From IMG/VR virus record IMGVR_UViG_2695420514_000020, positions 1-6,359 of that record: DNA of 6,359 nt. One strand, given 5' to 3'. The notes under the pieces are model-generated. The model was not told where the DNA came from and did not search any database. It saw nothing but the letters and a program-made list of their open reading frames with translations. This DNA comes from a virus. Its lineage: Duplodnaviria; Heunggongvirae; Uroviricota; Caudoviricetes. A program made the position numbers and the translations under genes. This document shows, one piece after another, positions 1 to 6,359 of the stretch. Position 1 is the first letter of the stretch; each line of letters begins with the position of its first letter.

Positions 1-225
1 ATGAATCAGAAATACATTCCATCATGCTTGAGAAATCTGCCAAAGCAGAAAGCAAAGCCCCGCAAGCAAGCCATAAAGGACGCTAAGGCAGAGGTTATTG
101 ATCAAGCAATACAATTGCTCAGGGAGGAGTTAAGAAGTGGCAAGCTCGAAGGAATGATGATGCCCTATCAGCGCGGATATCTATCGGCGATTAGTAAGTT
201 GGAAGTATTGAAGAGTGAATTATGA
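1..225 (+). CDS. hypothetical small basic protein (74 aa)
   Basis: ATG at 1, TGA at 223-225. Lys/Arg-rich N-terminal half (KQKAKPRKQAIKDAKAE). The window starts exactly at the start codon, so the upstream RBS or promoter cannot be seen. No family recognised. Confidence 0.45.
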   Translation: MNQKYIPSCLRNLPKQKAKPRKQAIKDAKAEVIDQAIQLLREELRSGKLEGMMMPYQRGYLSAISKLEVLKSEL

Positions 226-280
226 ACTATCTGGAATTTCCGGATGGTTCATTGTTTTGGCAGCAAGCATAGAGGTGAAT

Positions 281-577
281 ATGGAATTCAAAGGTACTAA
301 AGGTAAGTGGGAAATAATGATGGATGGCGATGAGATTAAAATCATCCAGGCAGACTCACTTGAAAATGGCGCAGGCTGGCGTTCGTATATTGCAATCTGT
401 GAGGAAGTTCAACGCATTGAAGATGCCAATCTAATAGCGGCAGCACCTGACCTTCTCGAAGCACTTCAGTTATTACTTAAGCAATCAAAAAATAGAACAA
501 CGACAATATATCCAGAATGGTATGGAGCTGTTAATAAAGGTTTTGCAGCAATCATCAAGGCTCTGGGAGGTGAGTGA
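281..577 (+). CDS. hypothetical phage early protein (98 aa), possibly Ead/Ea22-related
   Basis: ATG at 281 preceded by AGAGG (271-275) with a 5-nt spacer. The track ORF extends in frame to GTG 215, which has no comparable RBS. Stop TGA 575-577 overlaps the next ATG (TGATG). Contains the motif NLIAAAPDLLEAL, which I recall from Ead/Ea22-like lambdoid early proteins (memory only, unverified). Confidence 0.55.
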   Translation: MEFKGTKGKWEIMMDGDEIKIIQADSLENGAGWRSYIAICEEVQRIEDANLIAAAPDLLEALQLLLKQSKNRTTTIYPEWYGAVNKGFAAIIKALGGE

Positions 578-672
578 TGTGCGAGTTTTACGAAGCAGAT
601 ATCAAACGCCCAGAAATGGCAAGTGATGCGACATACGTGATTATTTCGCGGCAAAGGCTATGCAAGCAATGA
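577..672 (+). CDS. small ORF (31 aa); possible 5' part of a frameshifted small gene
   Basis: ATG 577 with a strong SD GGAGG (566-570) and 6-nt spacer, overlapping the upstream stop. The ORF ends at TGA 670-672, while a second frame stays open from 627 to 776. Confidence 0.3.
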   Translation: MCEFYEADIKRPEMASDATYVIISRQRLCKQ

Positions 673-776
673 TTAGCAATCCATCGATTATCGATAATGA
701 TTCTGATGGAGCTGTTAATTATGCAGCAAGCGCTGCATATAAGTTTGCAGACGCAATGCTCAAAGCTCGCGAATAA
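660..776 (+). CDS. small ORF (38 aa); possible 3' part of the same frameshifted gene
   Basis: The frame is open from 627 and the first ATG is at 660, with no good SD (AAGG only 2 nt upstream). Stop TAA 774-776. The translation CDIRDYFAAKAMQAMISNPSIIDNDSDGAVNYAASAAYKFADAMLKARE looks protein-like from before the ATG, which suggests it continues the upstream ORF after a frameshift. Confidence 0.3.
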   Translation: MQAMISNPSIIDNDSDGAVNYAASAAYKFADAMLKARE

Positions 777-779
777 GCA

Positions 780-811
780 CTGTGTATTCATTCCAACGAG
801 TGAATACACGG
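780..811 (+). other. inverted repeat / stem-loop without a U-tract
   Basis: GTGTATTCA (782-790) pairs with TGAATACAC (801-809); the stem extends with C780-G811 and a T781/G810 wobble; 10-nt loop. No T-run follows, so this is not a canonical terminator. It sits in the 185-bp non-coding gap. Confidence 0.4.
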
Positions 812-871
812 AGCAATGTCGCTCGTAACTAAACAGGAGCCGACTTGTTCTGATTATTGGAAATCTTCTTT

Positions 872-896
872 GCCCTCCAGTGTGAGGGCTTTTTTA
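872..896 (+). terminator. rho-independent terminator
   Basis: GC-rich 6-bp stem GCCCTC (872-877) / GAGGGC (884-889), 6-nt loop, followed directly by TTTTTT (890-895). The orientation works only on the + strand. It lies inside the track ORF 857-1132, arguing that ORF is over-extended. Confidence 0.7.
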
Positions 897-961
897 TATG
901 CATACCAATAACGCTTCACTTGAGGCGTTTTCGTTATGCAATCAAACAGAAGGAGCATCCT

Positions 962-1132
962 ATGCAACAGTTCGCTATTGCAGGGGCGGCATCGGTTCGC
1001 CCTTTCAACCCGATTTTATCGGTACAGCATTCACGAAAAAATATTTTAACCGGAGCAGACTTTAAACAACCAAGAATGAAAAGTTTGCTCGAAAAGCTTT
1101 GGGATATTTTGAAACAACAAGGCCGTCCATGA
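962..1132 (+). CDS. CIII-like small regulatory protein (putative FtsH inhibitor, lysogeny control), 56 aa
   Basis: ATG 962 preceded by AGGAG (951-955) with a 6-nt spacer. Product MQQFAIAGAASVRPFNPILSVQHSRKNILTGADFKQPRMKSLLEKLWDILKQQGRP. The N-terminal FAIAG and C-terminal SLLEK...LWDILKQQG resemble lambda CIII (MQYAIAG... ESLLER... KRLIDILNQPG) as I recall it. The position upstream of the recombinase matches the lambda order cIII-kil-gam-bet. Confidence 0.5.
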   Translation: MQQFAIAGAASVRPFNPILSVQHSRKNILTGADFKQPRMKSLLEKLWDILKQQGRP

Positions 1133-1236
1133 GTTTTACAGATAACTGGTCAGACGAAGAATTCATTCGTCAGATGAACAAAATGCTCAATCAGCACAAA
1201 GAACAGGAGAAAGATGATGATTCTGACTCTGAATGA
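1129..1236 (+). CDS. hypothetical small acidic protein (35 aa)
   Basis: ATG 1129 overlaps the CIII-like stop (ATGA). Weak SD AAGG (1119-1122). Product MSFTDNWSDEEFIRQMNKMLNQHKEQEKDDDSDSE; stop TGA 1234-1236. It is below the track length cutoff and overlaps the next gene start by 23 nt. It occupies the kil-like position. Confidence 0.35.
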   Translation: MSFTDNWSDEEFIRQMNKMLNQHKEQEKDDDSDSE

Positions 1237-1525
1237 TAAGCGTGAAATATCGCAAATAATCGCAAGTTTTACTGATGAAGATTACGAACGAATCAACAGT
1301 GAAGTTGATCGTCTCTGCAAACGTTGCGACCCCATAAGCGAAATGCTTCGCTCATATAAACCAGATGAACACACTAAGGACGCTATCGACTGGCTGGAAG
1401 ATGATGACTGTAACTATCAGGAAAAAGCCGCTGAATGGTTCTGGGATGCAATAACCGAAAGAGTTAAGGCTGAATATGCCTTCGCAATATTCAAACGCAG
1501 ACATATTTATGGAGAAGCTGCATGA
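1214..1525 (+). CDS. hypothetical protein (103 aa) immediately upstream of recT
   Basis: Tandem ATGs at 1214 and 1217 follow AGGAGA (1205-1210). Stop TGA 1523-1525 overlaps the recT ATG (ATGA). No family recognised. It occupies the gam-like position. Confidence 0.6.
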   Translation: MMILTLNDKREISQIIASFTDEDYERINSEVDRLCKRCDPISEMLRSYKPDEHTKDAIDWLEDDDCNYQEKAAEWFWDAITERVKAEYAFAIFKRRHIYGEAA

Positions 1526-2424
1526 GCAATATCGTTGAATTCGTTAAACAGCAAGAGCAGTTATTCTGCGGAGCATTGACTGAACAGACGGTGACATGGG
1601 CTAAGGAAAGCCAGTTTGCAATTCAGTATTTCCAGAAAAATGATTACCTGGCTAAAACAGCACTGGCAAATCCAACCAGCGCACAGAACGCCATCATCAA
1701 TGTTGCGGCGATCGGCATCACCTTAAACCCGGCCAGCAAACTGGCTTATCTGGTTCCTCGCGACGGCATGGTGTGCCTTGATATCAGTTACATGGGATTA
1801 CTTCATCTTGCGCAATCGACAGGATCAATTAAGTGGGGGCAATGCAAACTGGTGTACTCAAACGACACCTATGAATCAAATGGCCTTGATTCAGCACCAA
1901 CCCACAAATACAACGCATTTGGTGAGCGAGGCTCTATTGTTGGAGGTTATTGCACGGTTAAAACAGCAGATGGTGACTACCTGACTGAAGAAATGAGTCT
2001 GGCAGAAATTAAAGCTGTGGAAGCAACGAGCAAGGCAAAGAATGGACCGTGGAAAACATTCTGGGAAGAGATGGCGCGTAAAACAATAGTTAAACGCGCC
2101 AGCAAATACTGGCCTAAAGCCCAGCGACTGGATAATGCCATTCACCTTCTTAACGAAGATGAAGGTATGCATCAGGAACCAGTTATGCCGCACAAATCAG
2201 AGGAAGATATCCGCGAAGATGAACGGAAACGCCAGCAGGAAATAATGGATAAAGCACAACTTCTTTGCGATGAAATGGCTCAGGCAGAAAACATGGACGA
2301 TTTGAAGCGATATTTTGCAGAAGCATATCGCCTGACATCTGGAATGAAATTGCAGCAGAACGTACAAGCCATTTACATAGAATGCAAAGCGAAACTGGAG
2401 GTTGCCAGTGAGCAAACTGTATGA
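1522..2424 (+). CDS. recT: RecT-family single-strand annealing recombinase (300 aa)
   Basis: The segment NGPWKTFWEEMARKTIVKRASKYWP closely matches the Rac RecT segment NGPWVTHWEEMAKKTAIRRLFKYLP (from memory). Length and surrounding residues are consistent. SD GGAGAAG (1511-1517). Confidence 0.85.
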   Translation: MSNIVEFVKQQEQLFCGALTEQTVTWAKESQFAIQYFQKNDYLAKTALANPTSAQNAIINVAAIGITLNPASKLAYLVPRDGMVCLDISYMGLLHLAQSTGSIKWGQCKLVYSNDTYESNGLDSAPTHKYNAFGERGSIVGGYCTVKTADGDYLTEEMSLAEIKAVEATSKAKNGPWKTFWEEMARKTIVKRASKYWPKAQRLDNAIHLLNEDEGMHQEPVMPHKSEEDIREDERKRQQEIMDKAQLLCDEMAQAENMDDLKRYFAEAYRLTSGMKLQQNVQAIYIECKAKLEVASEQTV

Positions 2425-2890
2425 AATTGCCAATGAATACGCAAAATTGATGGATTCAGATTTAGAACCAGAGATGATTGCTGACACAATAGAAGGCATG
2501 GAAGGAGAATTTACCGATAAAATAGAGCAACTTCTCGCCATTATTAAAAATGAATCTGGTTATGCTGAACGCCTCAAGGAAGAGGCAAAGTCACTAAATG
2601 AGCGAGCCGTAGTAATTCAAAATAAGATTGACAGCATTATGGCGTATATAGCGTCATCGCTTGAAATGGTTGGCAAGAAAAAGATTCGAGCAGGTATTCA
2701 CCAGGTAACAATCCGCAAACCGTCAGAAACTGTAGAAATCATCGACTCAAGCGCCCTTCCTCCTGAATACGTTGAGTTCGAAACGACAATTAAAGCCGAC
2801 AAACTGGCAATCAAACACCAACTAAAAGCAGGAATAAATATCCCCGGTGCTCAACTCAAAGTTGGGAAACCTTCACTTCTTATCAAATAA
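2408..2890 (+). CDS. Siphovirus Gp157-like protein (about 160 aa), common RecT companion
   Basis: GTG 2408 is 6 nt after GGAGG (2397-2401); the track starts at in-frame TTG 2402. Overlaps the recT 3' end by 17 nt. N-terminal KLYEIANEYAKLMDSD...DTIEGMEGEF followed by a coiled-coil region fits my memory of the Gp157 family (PF05565), which typically sits beside RecT or Erf. Confidence 0.6.
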   Translation: MSKLYEIANEYAKLMDSDLEPEMIADTIEGMEGEFTDKIEQLLAIIKNESGYAERLKEEAKSLNERAVVIQNKIDSIMAYIASSLEMVGKKKIRAGIHQVTIRKPSETVEIIDSSALPPEYVEFETTIKADKLAIKHQLKAGINIPGAQLKVGKPSLLIK

Positions 2891-2901
2891 CGGTATCGCC
2901 T

Positions 2902-3216
2902 ATGAAAAAGACTCCATGGGAGAAATGGGAAGTCGATTTCTTGCGCGAAGTAGCGGCGACAATGCCAGTTGAAGTTATCGCTGAAAAACTGGAAAGGACT
3001 GAAAAAGCAGTTATGGCGAAAGCAACAAGGATTGGCGCTGACATTGTTAGCCGACTTCGTGGAAGACGCTGGACAAGAGCCGAAGTATCACTTTTCGGTA
3101 AGTTCTCCGCAGAAGAAATAGCAATTGCAACCTGCCGCTCAATTTATTCAGTAAGAGCTATGCGATACAAGCTAAAAAAACTCGATGAAGAAAGAGCAGG
3201 CATACGAATAAATTAA
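2902..3216 (+). CDS. putative DNA-binding protein with two tandem Myb/SANT-like HTH repeats (104 aa)
   Basis: ATG 2902, 11 nt after the upstream stop, with no strong SD. Two internal repeats share a W-x(2-3)-E-x(2)-L ... EEIA ... R(T/S)-x(3)-(A)VR pattern: [12 protein letters not shown]...[21 protein letters not shown] and [37 protein letters not shown]. Confidence 0.55.
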
Positions 3217-3232
3217 CAAAGAGGAATTTACC

Positions 3233-3397
3233 ATGAGAGGACTTGCATACAATCCCGGCATTCTTCCGGCAGAAATGATTATTCGCCAACGCGTAAAGCC
3301 AATGCCATCGAGAGAGGAATTGCTTAAGAGAAATTCTTTTCCATCAGTGAATCAAAACAAATATCTGAATGCGATGTTGCGGAGTGGGAAGAAATGA
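3233..3397 (+). CDS. hypothetical small protein (54 aa)
   Basis: ATG 3233 preceded by AAGAGGA (3219-3225) with a 7-nt spacer. Stop TGA 3395-3397 overlaps the next ATG (ATGA). Below the track cutoff. Confidence 0.45.
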
Positions 3398-3906
3398 AAC
3401 AAATGACACTAATTGAGATGGATGGTTTTCTGAAAGGTAAATGCATCCCAAGCGATTTAAAGGTTAACGAAACAAACGCTGAATATCTTGTCCGTAAGTT
3501 CGGTGAACTTGAATCAAAACTGGAAACGGCGTTGCGGGAGTGTCGTTCTGCTGGAATCACGATTGATAACCTTGAGGCTAAATGCACGAAGATGGCTGCT
3601 GAAAATACATCGCTTAAGCAATCTGAGAAGGAATTTAATGACTTTTGTCGTGAGGAGTTTAGCGAATGGGAAGATGATGTTACTGAAACTCCAGCCACCG
3701 ATGCTTTTCTGTCTGAAGTGCGGGCGCAGGGGGTGGATGCTGCTATAGAAGCTGCAAAAAATCTGGTGGCCCAAGAATATGAGTATAAGGATTTCAAAGC
3801 GGCGCAGAGTGATTGCTGTATGCACCCTGGTTCAGACCTGGTAGGGAAGGTTGAAATGACTGAGTGGTTAGTTGACTTTGCTGCCCAGCTTCGCAAAGGA
3901 GAGTGA
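3394..3906 (+). CDS. hypothetical coiled-coil protein (170 aa), possibly Ead/Ea22-like
   Basis: Long + strand ORF with a heptad-like charged helical middle ([44 protein letters not shown]). GGAG 3381-3384 upstream. The antisense ORFs across it are Ser-rich low-complexity shadows. Confidence 0.65.
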
Positions 3907-3907
3907 T

Positions 3908-4465
3908 ATGACCACTATAACCGATAAGAAACAGTATCCAGGCGAGCAATATCTTAATGAGCTGATCACCAACATAGAGTTTGCTGCAAGAGCACCAGTT
4001 GAAGTCGTGAGAGCGATGGCTGCAGAGCTACAGAAGCGGCGCGAAGCTGATAGTGCAGAACCTGTAAGCCAAACTTACAAGTTGCCAGTTAATACACCTT
4101 GCCAAGATGCGCCAGCCCATATCTGGCTGCAAACGGCTGGAGTATGGCCAGAAGATGGCGAGTTAAGCGAATTAACGTGGTGCAGCCACAATCAGCACCA
4201 TGATGACACGCTATATGTTCGAGCTGACCTTGTGAATGGCAACTCTCCGGGAACTCCGGATGGTTGGATAAGCTGTAGTGAGCGAATGCCAGAGGACGGT
4301 CAGCACGTAATTATTTTATGTGATGGCGCATTCGTTCTTTATGCGCAATATCGAGACGGTGAGTTTTTCGATATTGTCCGCAATGGTGATGAATTTTTTG
4401 AAACACAGAGCCGCAATGTAACACACTGGATGCCGCTACCAGAACCGCCGCAGGAGGCAAAATGA
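3908..4465 (+). CDS. DUF551-like domain phage protein (185 aa)
   Basis: ATG 3908 preceded by AAGGAG (3896-3901) with a 6-nt spacer; the track start at 3872 lies inside the upstream gene. The C-terminus DGWISCSERMPEDGQHVIIL...VTHWMPLPEPP matches the DUF551 signature as I recall it. Confidence 0.7.
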   Translation: MTTITDKKQYPGEQYLNELITNIEFAARAPVEVVRAMAAELQKRREADSAEPVSQTYKLPVNTPCQDAPAHIWLQTAGVWPEDGELSELTWCSHNQHHDDTLYVRADLVNGNSPGTPDGWISCSERMPEDGQHVIILCDGAFVLYAQYRDGEFFDIVRNGDEFFETQSRNVTHWMPLPEPPQEAK

Positions 4466-4659
4466 TGGATAAATGCCATGGCATTTTAGGTAAGTTGTTC
4501 GGGCACTCATTCAAGCCGGTGATCGCCAAGAGCGCCGTAAAATTCCCAACACGAATTGAAGGAACGCCGTCATTTGTCAGTAGAACGCTGGATGCCCATC
4601 GGGATGAAGATTATCGTGGCCTTTATTGCAAGCGTTGCGGAAAGGAGGTGAAGCCGTGA
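4462..4659 (+). CDS. small putative zinc-binding protein (65 aa)
   Basis: ATGATG at 4462 follows AGGAGG (4452-4457) and overlaps the upstream stop. N-terminal KCHG and C-terminal YCKRCGKE give a Cys/His...CxxC arrangement. Confidence 0.6.
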   Translation: MMDKCHGILGKLFGHSFKPVIAKSAVKFPTRIEGTPSFVSRTLDAHRDEDYRGLYCKRCGKEVKP

Positions 4660-4772
4660 TTACAGTGCTAGCATGGCATTTAAGTGAAAGCATTTATGGC
4701 TGGATGCTGGCAATTACAGCAATTCAGGATTTGGCAATCACATCGTTTATTTTCAGCCTGTGCAGGAGGTGA
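4656..4772 (+). CDS. small hydrophobic peptide (38 aa), putative membrane micro-protein
   Basis: GTG 4656 is 7 nt after AGGAGG (4643-4648) and overlaps the upstream stop (GTGA). Product MITVLAWHLSESIYGWMLAITAIQDLAITSFIFSLCRR; stop TGA 4770-4772. Not in the track (short). The track ORF 4684-5055 covers the same DNA in another frame. Confidence 0.4.
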   Translation: MITVLAWHLSESIYGWMLAITAIQDLAITSFIFSLCRR

Positions 4773-4776
4773 AGTG

Positions 4777-5055
4777 ATGGACTCCTTCGCGAAATATACG
4801 ATTATTGACTGGATAGCATTCCTTCAGGTTTTGCTCATCTGGTTTTATATGGCTTACAGGAGTGGGCAGTGGATTGTCAGTGTAGCCTGTAGCAAGGGAT
4901 GGCGTTGGTGGAACAGAAAGAATAAAAAAGCACTGGCATTGGATTCGTTTTACGAAGCATTCAATCTTAACAGTCTTCAGCCTGGTTCTGTCGTTGTAGT
5001 CACCACTCAAAGTGGCATGACCATTCAGATTCATAAACCAAAAGAGGAAAAATGA
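4777..5055 (+). CDS. small single-pass membrane protein (92 aa)
   Basis: ATG 4777 is 7 nt after AGGAGG (4764-4769). N-terminal hydrophobic segment YTIIDWIAFLQVLLIWFYMAY, then the basic Trp-rich stretch GWRWWNRKNKK. The track's upstream GTG 4684 start gives an implausible Cys/Trp-rich leader with no SD. Confidence 0.6.
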   Translation: MDSFAKYTIIDWIAFLQVLLIWFYMAYRSGQWIVSVACSKGWRWWNRKNKKALALDSFYEAFNLNSLQPGSVVVVTTQSGMTIQIHKPKEEK

Positions 5056-5141
5056 TGTGGCCTATATGTGTTAATTGCGGACGGATGTGCCTATCTGGAT
5101 GGTGCCGAAAGTGCGACAAATGCACGAAGCAAAGACAATAA
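5052..5141 (+). CDS. Cys-rich micropeptide (29 aa), zinc-ribbon-like
   Basis: ATGATG at 5052 overlaps the upstream stop (ATGA). SD AAGAGGA (5042-5048). Product MMWPICVNCGRMCLSGWCRKCDKCTKQRQ has 6 Cys including CxxC pairs. Stop TAA 5139-5141. Confidence 0.4.
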   Translation: MMWPICVNCGRMCLSGWCRKCDKCTKQRQ

Positions 5142-5174
5142 CAATCCTCGCACTCGCGGGGATTTCTTTTATCT

Positions 5175-5200
5175 GAACTCGCTACGGCGGGTTTTGTTTT
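5175..5200 (+). terminator. possible weak intrinsic terminator / attenuator
   Basis: Stem GAACTCGC (5175-5182) pairs with GCGGGTTT (5187-5194), including G-U wobbles, around the tetraloop TACG. It is followed by TTTTGTTTT. Marginal stability. Confidence 0.3.
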
Positions 5201-5212
5201 ATGGAGATGATT

Positions 5213-5512
5213 ATGACTTGTTCAACATTCAACCCTTTAACGTTACAGAAATACCATCCAGACCCTGAAGATTTATGCTCACTGTGTGGCGGAAATCATG
5301 GTAAAGCCGCCATGATCGAATGTAAGGACAAAATCCACATATGCCTTAATTGCGTTGATGTCCTCGTTGATATCAAAAATGAAAGAGAAGATAAAAAGCG
5401 TAGCGAGGCTATTCGCGCCTTAGATTCATGGATGCGAGATGGGTATAGTGCTGCGCAAATTTATGACTTAGCCATTTCAAAAGGCGAAATACCAGGTGTG
5501 CGAATCGAATAA
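5213..5512 (+). CDS. zinc-ribbon-containing hypothetical protein (99 aa)
   Basis: ATG 5213 is 5 nt after GGAGA (5203-5207); in-frame ATGs at 5201 and 5207 are alternatives. CSLCGG ... HICLNC gives a CxxC-x18-CxxC pattern. Confidence 0.65.
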   Translation: MTCSTFNPLTLQKYHPDPEDLCSLCGGNHGKAAMIECKDKIHICLNCVDVLVDIKNEREDKKRSEAIRALDSWMRDGYSAAQIYDLAISKGEIPGVRIE

Positions 5513-5547
5513 GAAGCGCACTCAAGCATCTTTTGGGGAAATCACAA

Positions 5548-5715
5548 ATGCACTTCCTAGTCACAGGTGAATGGAATGGAGAGCCATTCAACAGAGTTAT
5601 CGAATCGGAGAACATCAACGACTGCTACGACCACTGGATGATATGGGCGCAGATAGCACATGCAGAAGTAACCAATATTCAAATTGAAGAACTGAAAGAA
5701 CACCAAGCCGCCTGA
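5548..5715 (+). CDS. hypothetical small protein (55 aa)
   Basis: ATG 5548 is 7 nt after GGGGAA (5535-5540); the track starts at in-frame TTG 5533. Stop TGA 5713-5715. Confidence 0.5.
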   Translation: MHFLVTGEWNGEPFNRVIESENINDCYDHWMIWAQIAHAEVTNIQIEELKEHQAA

Positions 5716-5728
5716 TTGCGGTTTTTTA
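5705..5728 (+). terminator. weak terminator-like hairpin with T-tract
   Basis: Stem CCGC (5708-5711) / GCGG (5718-5721), extendable by A-U and G-U pairs, with loop CTGATT. It is followed by TTTTTT (5722-5727) and overlaps the stop of the 55-aa gene. Confidence 0.35.
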
Positions 5729-5741
5729 TTGGAGACAAGAA

Positions 5742-6086
5742 ATGTCAGATTTGGCTATGAAGGTTTTGAAATGGCAATCGACTGGCGATGTTGGCATCAG
5801 TAGCGCAACTCTTGCCTCAATCGCATGTGGACTGAAAAAGAATATCTATGGTCATAGCTTCGGTGCTCCACATGACGCAGCAGACTTTCGGCGATGCGTT
5901 GCACTTGTTGAGCAGATTCCAGAAATCAGAGATTCATTCGACAAGGTTGCAAAGCGCGTTCCGGCATTCAAAGGAATCCTCAACGAATGGGATTCCCTCG
6001 TTGCTCTGTTGAAGTCTGAAATGAAGATACACGGAAACAAAGCACCAGAGACTTACAGAAGAATTAGCGAGTTACGCAAGGACTAA
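5742..6086 (+). CDS. hypothetical protein (114 aa)
   Basis: ATG 5742 is 6 nt after GGAGA (5731-5735). Clean single long ORF with stop TAA 6084-6086. No family recognised. Confidence 0.7.
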   Translation: MSDLAMKVLKWQSTGDVGISSATLASIACGLKKNIYGHSFGAPHDAADFRRCVALVEQIPEIRDSFDKVAKRVPAFKGILNEWDSLVALLKSEMKIHGNKAPETYRRISELRKD

Positions 6087-6126
6087 CCACAGCCTCACAC
6101 TCGATGAGGCCTGTACATATCTGATA

Positions 6127-6153
6127 GAGCCGCTATATGGCGGTTTCTTTTTG
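6127..6153 (+). terminator. rho-independent terminator, preceded by a second hairpin at 6092-6110
   Basis: Stem CCGC (6130-6133) / GCGG (6140-6143), extendable with wobble pairs, loop ATAT, followed by TTTCTTTTT. Just upstream is a 6-bp hairpin GCCTCA (6092-6097) / TGAGGC (6105-6110). Confidence 0.5.
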
Positions 6154-6167
6154 CCTGGAGAATTAAG

Positions 6168-6359
6168 ATGAGCGATACTAGCCTGATTCCTGAGAAAGAA
6201 GTGATGAACAAGCTCGGTGTTTCATCACGTCAGACAATCTGGAACTATACCAAACGGCACGGATTTCCGAAGCCAGTCAGAACCCACCCCAAATCATACC
6301 TTCGTGAAGCTGTTGAAGGGTGGATTCTTAACGGTGGCGTTAATCAGAAATGCTCCTGA
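6168..6359 (+). CDS. AlpA/Xis-family HTH DNA-binding protein (63 aa); putative excisionase or integrase activator
   Basis: ATG 6168 is 7 nt after GGAG (6157-6160). Pattern IPEKEVMNKLGVSSRQTIWNYTKRHGFPKPV...EAVEGWI matches the AlpA/Xis-family arrangement (…EV…G.SR.TIY…G.FPKP…W) as I recall it. The window ends at its stop codon. Confidence 0.65.
   Translation: MSDTSLIPEKEVMNKLGVSSRQTIWNYTKRHGFPKPVRTHPKSYLREAVEGWILNGGVNQKCS

Follow-up and report, generated by a model that had tools for sequence, protein, structure and literature searches.

A tightly packed trio of DUF2737, EaE/HkaH-family and DUF551 genes in the early-left operon of a lambdoid prophage, with a probable recombination joint between its second and third genes

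We analysed three consecutive plus-strand genes (positions 3233-4465) in a 6,359-nucleotide (nt) stretch of DNA, referred to here as the window, which corresponds to positions 1 to 6,359 of the IMG/VR virus record IMGVR_UViG_2695420514_000020. The first gene encodes a DUF2737 protein, the second a member of the EaE/HkaH family and the third a protein with a C-terminal DUF551 domain, and the junction between the second and third genes appears to be a recombination joint. The trio lies in the early-left (PL) operon of a lambdoid prophage, within the segment known as 'ea' in P22 and as 'exo-xis' in lambda; this prophage is integrated beside sbcB, most likely in Escherichia albertii. To the overall reading, which combines the identity of the trio, its mosaic origin and its function, we assign a probability of roughly 0.7, because the statement is mostly about identity and evolution and less about function. 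Judged from the sequences, the identity and evolutionary account is very probably right, and the functional part, in which the products would be host-directed accessory proteins that modulate replication or nucleotide metabolism, is a tentative proposal based on analogy with relatives. In kind the trio is already known, since all its genes belong to catalogued families, the region has long been known to be mosaic and an identical gene 3 protein is annotated; the families are uncharacterised and the arrangement is ordinary.

Gene 1 (3233-3397) encodes 54 amino acids (aa), gene 2 (3394-3906) 170 aa and gene 3 (3908-4465, counted from the ATG at 3908) 185 aa. The first-pass annotation of this DNA had described three consecutive genes linked by ATGA or near-abutting junctions, and the coordinates are exactly as it gave them: genes 1 and 2 share an ATGA stop/start overlap at 3394-3397, and the TGA stop codon of gene 2 (3904-3906) is separated by 1 nt from the ATG of gene 3 (3908-3910). 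A Shine-Dalgarno-like AGAGGA (3220-3225) precedes the gene 1 ATG by 7 nt, a GGAG (3381-3384) lies within the gene 1 coding sequence upstream of the gene 2 start, and the AAGGAG Shine-Dalgarno of gene 3 (3896-3901) lies inside the last codons of gene 2, 6 nt before the ATG. Both pairs of genes therefore carry coupling signals, namely a stop/start overlap or a 1-nt gap together with a Shine-Dalgarno inside the upstream gene. The three open reading frames (ORFs) are genuine genes under purifying selection, because they have strong PHROG or Pfam matches, are called as genes in 8 public contigs with an identical gene 3 protein and show low ratios of nonsynonymous to synonymous substitution (dN/dS). 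Median pairwise dN/dS against homologous locus DNA was 0.10 for gene 1, 0.09-0.19 for gene 2 and 0.07-0.16 for gene 3. An antisense ORF of 190 aa opposite gene 2 (3324-3896, minus strand) had no PHROG match and was taken as non-coding, that is as a by-product of sense-strand codon usage.

Gene 1 had been left unnamed by the first-pass annotation, which missed its DUF2737 identity. The protein matched the complete Pfam model of DUF2737 (PF10930, 110.5 bits, E 3.4e-32, 1-53 of 53), well above the gathering cut-off of 25 bits, as well as PHROG 1117 (E 1.3e-37); the control protein, P22 orf56, matched PF10930 with 138 bits (8.8e-41). Its identity is 77% with P22 orf56 and 87% with HK629 gp37, and we assign it by sequence as a basic DUF2737 protein, the counterpart of P22 orf56 and HK620 HkaI. 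In the searched literature DUF2737 was present as an annotation mention only and no experimental study of it was found. To map shared DNA we compared the window with 80 IMG/VR loci that carry a near-identical DUF2737 (the DUF2737-seeded loci), with at least 85% identity as the threshold for sharing. A reverse sample of 80 loci was picked for DUF551, and the counts of upstream genes refer to 63 of these. Both samples consist of best-scoring matches and are skewed to close relatives. The DNA block shared with the DUF2737-seeded loci begins at 3221, where 77-80 of the 80 loci reach the threshold, and nothing is common upstream of this point.

The gene 2 protein matched PHROG 614 over aa 1-169 (E 2.6e-63). 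It is 97.6% identical to CUS-3 HkaH over 99% of its length, 72% identical to HK629 gp35 and 53% identical to the SE21 protein called 'EaE'. P22 EaE aligned to aa 60-113 of gene 2 only (60% identity, E 9e-20), its N-terminal head being different. These matches assign gene 2 to the family of P22 EaE and HK620 HkaH (PHROG 614), and no experimental study of EaE, HkaH or orf56 was found in the searched literature. Comparison of the loci delimited a constant N-terminal EaE head (aa 1-43, 3394-3522, plus strand, PHROG 583), which is about 95% identical across loci with unrelated downstream EaE sequence and whose residues 3-42 are 73% identical to aa 2-41 of the Escherichia coli K-12 protein YfdS (E 7e-20). 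Within gene 2, a conserved DNA island (3685-3737, plus strand) is common to up to 37 of the 80 loci and nearly invariant in the family alignment, and its variable flanks are shared by 4-15 loci. Gene 31 of epsilon34 is a fusion of the EaE N-terminus with an HNH homing endonuclease (PMC2629481), and the label 'HNH endonuclease' found on many public relatives of gene 2 is likely to be a carry-over from fusions of this type. The description of the 170-aa protein as a coiled-coil protein in the first-pass annotation was only weakly borne out, for a region of about aa 30-90: the matches to ZapB, CCDC93_CC and SMC over about aa 21-122 were all below threshold, and a crude heptad score, which peaks at aa 36-83, was reached by 11% of shuffles and is thus not significant.

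Gene 3 is composed of an N-terminal part starting MTTIT... and a C-terminal DUF551 domain. The domain (aa 119-182, 4262-4453, plus strand) matched the Pfam model over its full length (PF04448, 79.5 bits, E 3.5e-22, model 1-68 of 68; gathering cut-off 22 bits), so that the DUF551-type C-terminus recognised in the first-pass annotation was recovered by the Pfam scan. The protein ends ...VTHWMPLPEPPQEAK. Both frame motifs of the domain (consensus W-I-S/P-x-S-x-x-M/L-P ... H-W-M-P-L-P-x-P-P) are found in gene 3, as WISCSERMP and HWMPLPEPP, and are invariant in alignments; the ends of the domain, TPDGWISCSERMP and VTHWMPLPEPP, are conserved around a hypervariable core, and the domain finishes 3 residues before the stop codon. 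The 80 loci contain at least 13 unrelated DUF551 cores, each enclosed by the two conserved frame motifs. A protein 100% identical to that of gene 3 is annotated in Escherichia albertii.

DUF551 is also, as had been stated at first, widespread and functionally uncharacterised. Proteins of the gene 3 type were found in 611 of the 50,697 records of the phage collection, and an exhaustive search for DUF551 yielded 4,799 50%-identity cluster representatives (E<=0.001). Nearly all of the best 150, with lengths of 44-487 aa, have the domain at the C-terminus. P0489 in the representative library (487 aa) carries six separate DUF551 matches, that is tandem repeats. A search of a viral structure library returned further DUF551 proteins, encoded by sipho-, myo-, podo- and ackermannviruses, of which some, with 57-116 aa, are stand-alone. 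The partners of the domain include the Ead_Ea22 coiled coil (HK629 gp33), a dATP/dGTP pyrophosphohydrolase (P22 EaA) and the EaE head (YfdS). A sequence search of solved structures with the single trio proteins and the DUF551 profile gave no relative, and neither a solved structure nor an informative fold match was found for DUF551. An AlphaFold2 model predicts a small five-stranded all-beta domain (mean pLDDT 72.5).

Genes 2 and 3 are connected by an inter-gene linker, CAAAGGAGAGTGATATGACCAC (3894-3915, plus strand), which covers the K G E codons of gene 2, AAGGAG, TGA, one base and the ATG ACC AC of gene 3. The linker sequence AAAGGAGAGTGATATGACCAC (3895-3915) occurs once in the window, with 0 occurrences expected by chance. 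Allowing up to 2 mismatches, the 18-nt linker core was present in 25 of the 80 loci, and in 22 of them the gene before it ends ..(I/F)RIKGE*, as Ead/Ea22 proteins usually do; the linker precedes genes starting MTT/MST/MAT... Comparison with E. coli PK12 (locus L004) gave the following picture of the junction. Window positions 3685-3901 correspond to 3953-4169 of the PK12 locus (97%) and positions 3894-4065 to 4782-4953 (96%); the two blocks overlap on CAAAGGAG (3894-3901), an 8-nt repeat, and 620 nt of PK12 are absent from the window. These 620 nt represent the ead/Ea22 gene at 4177-4794 of the PK12 locus. The linker thus follows EaE in the window because the whole Ead/Ea22 gene is missing between the two CAAAGGAG copies, and because the linker was acquired the EaE of the window ends ..QLRKGE, most EaE proteins ending ..QLRKGGNQ. 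We read the near-abutment of genes 2 and 3 as a probable recombination joint at a conserved gene-end sequence that contains a ribosome-binding site. Linker sequences at module boundaries are reportedly described in the HK620 genome paper. The join of EaE, linker and a DUF551-type gene is rare and not unique: it recurs in E. coli 2017.15.02CC, and ..QLRKGE is the end of two EaE proteins. Among complete E. coli genomes, that of 2017.15.02CC alone shares the EaE-linker-MTTIT junction (locus L003, 4162-5272); its EaE is interrupted by a premature stop at codon 41, and its gene 3 homologue switches after ...TPDGW to a CxxC-rich zinc-finger domain ('DnaJ') that replaces DUF551.

Sharing of DNA with the 80 loci is confined to islands. 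The segment 3221-3505 is shared by almost all of them, 3894-3915 by 14, 4055-4093 by 23, 4240-4297 by 56 and 4418-4453 by 45, and the sequence between the shared islands is unrelated among the loci; the DUF551 core DNA between the last two islands is shared by only 4 of the 80. Of the island at 4240-4297, which codes PDGWISCSERMP, 44 copies were recovered, and the sequence behind them falls into 24 different contexts. Conservation at the third codon positions of this island is mostly 0.93-1.00 (two lower sites, 0.86 and 0.52), and this conservation of synonymous sites argues for shared descent by recombination and not for protein constraint alone. The same gene 3-type protein is found both free-standing and fused to Ead_Ea22. 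In an E. coli fox isolate (locus L171, 2424-3272), a 283-aa protein annotated as ead/Ea22-like consists of an Ead_Ea22 head, a coil and a whole gene 3-type protein, and gene 3 is collinear with its aa 102-283, the C-terminal two thirds. The fusion joint reads GAAGGTGAGATGACC instead of AAAGGAGAGTGATATGACC, in frame and without the TGAT of the linker. Gene 3 itself had no match to the Ead_Ea22 model (PF13935), the head and coiled coil being missing from it, and its aa 24-42 matched the F..P..VLALLDE motif of Ead/Ea22 with an hhalign probability of only 16.6%. Mosaicism of temperate phages is homology-driven and promoted by their own annealing recombinases (PMC3945230), and the annealing recombinase RecT is encoded just upstream of the trio. 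The genes are patchworks, in which DNA islands of 20-60 nt, common with otherwise unrelated relatives, act as recombination joints. The window thereby offers a base-by-base example of how a conserved ribosome-binding-site linker serves as the joint at which whole genes are removed or inserted and proteins are fused or split.

We compared the trio with known phage regions. The ea region of P22 (abc2-orf56-eaE-orf45-eaF-eaD-eaI-eaA...xis-int) has the same place in the PL operon, its orf56 is a DUF2737 gene followed by eaE, and its EaA ends in DUF551. In contrast, P22 has erf, abc1 and abc2 where the window has RecT, Gp157 and a 104-aa gene, P22 EaE resembles gene 2 in the limited segment given above, the DUF551 partner in EaA is the dATP/dGTP pyrophosphohydrolase and not an MTTIT... 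segment, and the window has no equivalents of eaF, eaD and eaI between its genes. In HK620 and CUS-3, hkaI encodes DUF2737, the CUS-3 hkaH product is the near-identical protein already mentioned and the DNA is about 96% identical over 3233-3740. However, the DNA similarity stops inside or after gene 2, and the DUF551 gene is not adjacent. A third likeness is with Ea22 variant 2 of Stx phages such as 24B and with HK629 gp33, which combine a helical N-terminal part with a C-terminal DUF551 and have an exo-xis/ea location; aa 61-238 of gp33 align with gene 3 (33% identity, E 1e-20). Gene 3 differs from these proteins in having neither the Ead_Ea22 head nor the coiled coil, and the upstream helical protein in the window is EaE, which belongs to another family and is a separate chain. 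Ea22 variant 2, whose C-terminal domain is DUF551, is the sole variant carried by phage 24B, and Ea22 has been described as a full-length tetramer with a dimeric acidic C-terminal domain (PMC10834534). In lambda and in Stx phages ea22 is prolysogenic (PMC7093339).

The CPS-53 prophage of E. coli K-12 provides the only experimental handle among relatives of the trio. YfdS consists of the EaE-type head related to gene 2 and of DUF551, YfdT starts MTTFTNKELIKEIKE as do the linker-preceded DUF551 genes, and the two genes are adjacent and overlapping. In YfdS, however, the head and DUF551 lie on one 120-aa chain, and in the window they are split over genes 2 and 3. Moreover YfdQ (DUF2303) and YfdR (an HD-domain 5'-deoxynucleotidase) have no counterpart in the window, and the CPS-53 cluster has no DUF2737. 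Multicopy yfdQ and yfdR together with either yfdS or yfdT inhibit initiation at oriC, YfdR binds DnaA, and deletion of yfdS leads to H2O2 sensitivity (PMC4776307). By linking EaE and DUF551 to the studied proteins YfdS/YfdT and Ea22 variant 2, the present assignments give a starting point for work on DUF551 and its approximately 4,800 protein clusters.

One long early PL transcript probably runs from RecT through Gp157, the 104-aa gene and the trio to xis, and the trio is probably translated in a coupled fashion through the ATGA overlap and the stop-adjacent Shine-Dalgarno. From the relatives a possible mechanism can be outlined. The trio proteins may be non-essential, host-directed early proteins, with EaE giving an N-terminal head and a helical, possibly oligomerising segment and with DUF551 acting as a small portable beta domain that would tether variable partners to a common target. 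Genes 2 and 3 would then be the two-chain counterpart of single-chain proteins of the Ea22 variant 2 or YfdS type. Together they would modulate host replication or nucleotide metabolism and, through this, the lysis-lysogeny balance. Several points weigh against the overall reading. No experiment on the trio proteins, EaE or DUF2737 was found in the searched literature, and the phenotypes of YfdS/YfdT arise in multicopy and depend on YfdQ and YfdR, both without a homologue in the window. Fusions are frequent in the region, which makes a partnership of genes 2 and 3 deduced from fusions a weak one. The coiled coil of gene 2 lacks statistical support in the heptad test, and the full-length AlphaFold2 model of gene 3 is unusably poor (pLDDT 48.6). 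On the evolutionary side, the direction of the 620-nt event, deletion or insertion, is inferred from frequency alone, and both 80-locus samples are biased to close relatives.

The main functional rival, which we consider unlikely, is that genes 2 and 3 encode anti-defence or superinfection-exclusion factors whose hypervariable cores result from an arms race. The operon segment also holds Ral, Gam-like genes and abc2 (anti-RecBCD), the last of which precedes DUF2737 in all 77 loci with enough upstream DNA. Conserved frames around hypervariable cores, with the 13 or more DUF551 variants of the 80 loci, and the fusion of DUF551 to a MazG-like dNTP pyrophosphohydrolase in P22 EaA would also fit such a role. 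However, recombination at conserved islands can account for the variability without selection, no literature link was found, and the only phenotypes of relatives concern lysogeny, replication initiation and oxidative stress. PADLOC, whose library covers defence and not anti-defence, and the NCBIfam models returned nothing relevant for any of the three trio proteins. A bolder version of the host-directed reading, which we regard as quite improbable, would make the EaE head and DUF551 one host-targeting adaptor system, carried on one chain (YfdS, Ea22 variant 2) or on two coupled chains, with cores purposely diversified by cassette exchange at the short islands that are conserved even at synonymous sites. 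If true, its target would be replication initiation or nucleotide supply, and recombination, catalysed by the upstream single-strand-annealing recombinase, would serve to generate diversity in proteins of phage-host interaction.

We also asked whether the 'coupled trio' of the first-pass annotation is a unit. At least 78 of the 80 DUF2737-seeded loci share the ATGA overlap of the window, in the identical position and with an EaE-type N-terminus starting from it, and EaE follows DUF2737 directly, with an overlap, in P22, HK620, SE21 and PK12 as well. A same-strand DUF551 gene was present in 43 of the 59 loci with at least 3 kb of DNA downstream of DUF2737 (73%). The end of this DUF551 gene lies 900-3420 nt after DUF2737 (median 2040; 1068 in the window), and relatives have one to four other genes, typically Ead/Ea22-like, between the two. 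Genes 1 and 2 are thus a stable pair in close relatives, and gene 3 is common but positionally free in the same variable segment. The synteny expected of the trio was accordingly found for genes 1 and 2; it extended only in part to gene 3, whose position varies, most DUF551 genes lacking both partners. Of 63 DUF551-seeded loci, 12 had DUF2737 upstream, 30 EaE-like sequence and 6 both. The locus samples thus suggest that linkage among the three families is no stronger than that of other gene pairs of the ea region.

The trio is therefore very unlikely to be a dedicated functional module that is inherited together and whose components depend on one another, for example a three-component system. 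The tight junctions, the nearly invariant succession of DUF2737 and EaE in close relatives, the frequent downstream DUF551 gene and the recurrence of the exact trio in the 8 contigs would all agree with such a module. However, seen from DUF551 both partners are rarely present, six loci have DUF2737 without EaE, and the distance from gene 1 to the DUF551 gene is variable, with other genes intervening. The numbers of phage records with proteins of genes 1, 2 and 3 are unequal (292, 274 and 611). No phage record covered at least 80% of 3233-4465 and one complete E. coli genome only did so, in which EaE is broken by a stop codon and DUF551 is replaced. Finally, the coupling runs on into neighbouring genes: from 1214 to 4659 every gene is joined to the next by an overlap or by a gap of at most 16 nt, so that tight coupling characterises the operon and is not specific to the trio.

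A reading of gene 3 as a dead remnant, left over when the N-terminal half of an Ea22-DUF551 gene was lost, and of the junction as recombination debris is highly unlikely. In its favour, the last 181 aa of fusion proteins are collinear with gene 3, and debris is seen in the region, such as the stop codon in EaE of E. coli 2017.15.02CC and a 92-aa chimera in another locus (L048, 6162-6440). In this debris-like chimera, the EaE head and a coil segment of the Ea22 type are joined to no more of DUF551 than its WMPLPEPP tail. Against a remnant, the free-standing MTTIT... form of 180-190 aa is the commonest version among homologues (dozens of 90% clusters), gene 3 has its own strong Shine-Dalgarno and ATG, the same start recurs behind many different upstream genes, and its dN/dS of 0.07-0.16 is low.

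The weakest alternative, practically untenable, is the first-pass assignment of gene 2 to the Ead/Ea22 family. In its favour, the protein lies in the ea region, has a helical middle part and ends ..KGE as Ead/Ea22 proteins do, and a few EaE-family variants show a weak PF13935 match in their variable middle segment; however, gene 2 gave no match to PF13935 at E<=0.1 (gathering cut-off 27 bits), its BLASTP comparison with lambda Ea22 gave E 0.21, an hhalign comparison of a 38-sequence EaE alignment with a 9-sequence Ead/Ea22 alignment gave a probability of 0.2%, the N-terminal MSxIxYQALRE signature is missing and the ..KGE end is part of the shared linker, most EaE proteins ending ..RKGGNQ. The PF13935 controls all matched, namely lambda Ea22 (1.1e-28, 101 bits), P22 EaD (4.5e-20, 73 bits), HK629 gp33 (2.3e-21, 77 bits) and SE21 'EaA' (1.3e-25, 91 bits). 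At the level of sequences and profiles the Ead/Ea22 assignment is thus refuted in favour of PHROG 614, and an annotation trap is corrected: the 170-aa protein belongs with EaE/HkaH. The Ead/Ea22 gene that had been seen in gene 2 is the gene that relatives carry between genes 2 and 3 and that is absent here.

On the plus strand, the trio is preceded by small genes, RecT (1522-2424), a Gp157/Mu Gam-like gene (2402-2890) and the 104-aa gene, and is followed by a 65-aa ORF, DUF4752, three small genes and an excisionase-like helix-turn-helix gene. The source contigs have a cI-type repressor, N and SieB upstream and an integrase and the chromosomal sbcB downstream. No promoter-like or terminator-like site was found on the plus strand between 2510 and 5143, and an Rfam scan of the window gave no RNA family. 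The 104-aa gene, which follows the RecT-Gp157 pair within the segment 2902-3232, matched PHROG 11492/323 ('D5-like regulator') and replaces abc2 ahead of DUF2737 both in the window and in E. coli EH01-18-04-A.

The next gene after the trio, the 65-aa ORF (4462-4659, plus strand), has an ATGA overlap with gene 3 at 4462-4465 and is called in the source records. It gave weak matches only (DUF1660, E 0.01; PHROG 30313, 1.6e-5), has a Cys-rich C-terminus (YCKRCGKE) and had no DNA homologue of at least 85% identity in the 80 DUF2737-seeded loci; in many relatives the DUF551 gene directly abuts DUF4752 without this ORF. The DUF4752 ORF of the window (4684-5055, 123 aa) starts with GTG and exceeds its homologues in length, its family match starting from residue 32-39, and the source records call a 92-aa DUF4752 gene from the ATG at 4777. 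Terminator-like hairpins were found on the plus strand in the distal intergenic gaps at 5143-5194, 5705-5724 and 6127-6146. In one source contig (L088, 9103-11887) the integrase gene and the excisionase-like gene are convergent, the former lying on the opposite strand, and the prophage abuts sbcB (exonuclease I). The gene at 5201-5512 encodes a 103-aa protein (PHROG 3680) with paired CxxC motifs and a sub-threshold match to a ClpX-type C4 zinc finger (E 0.015).

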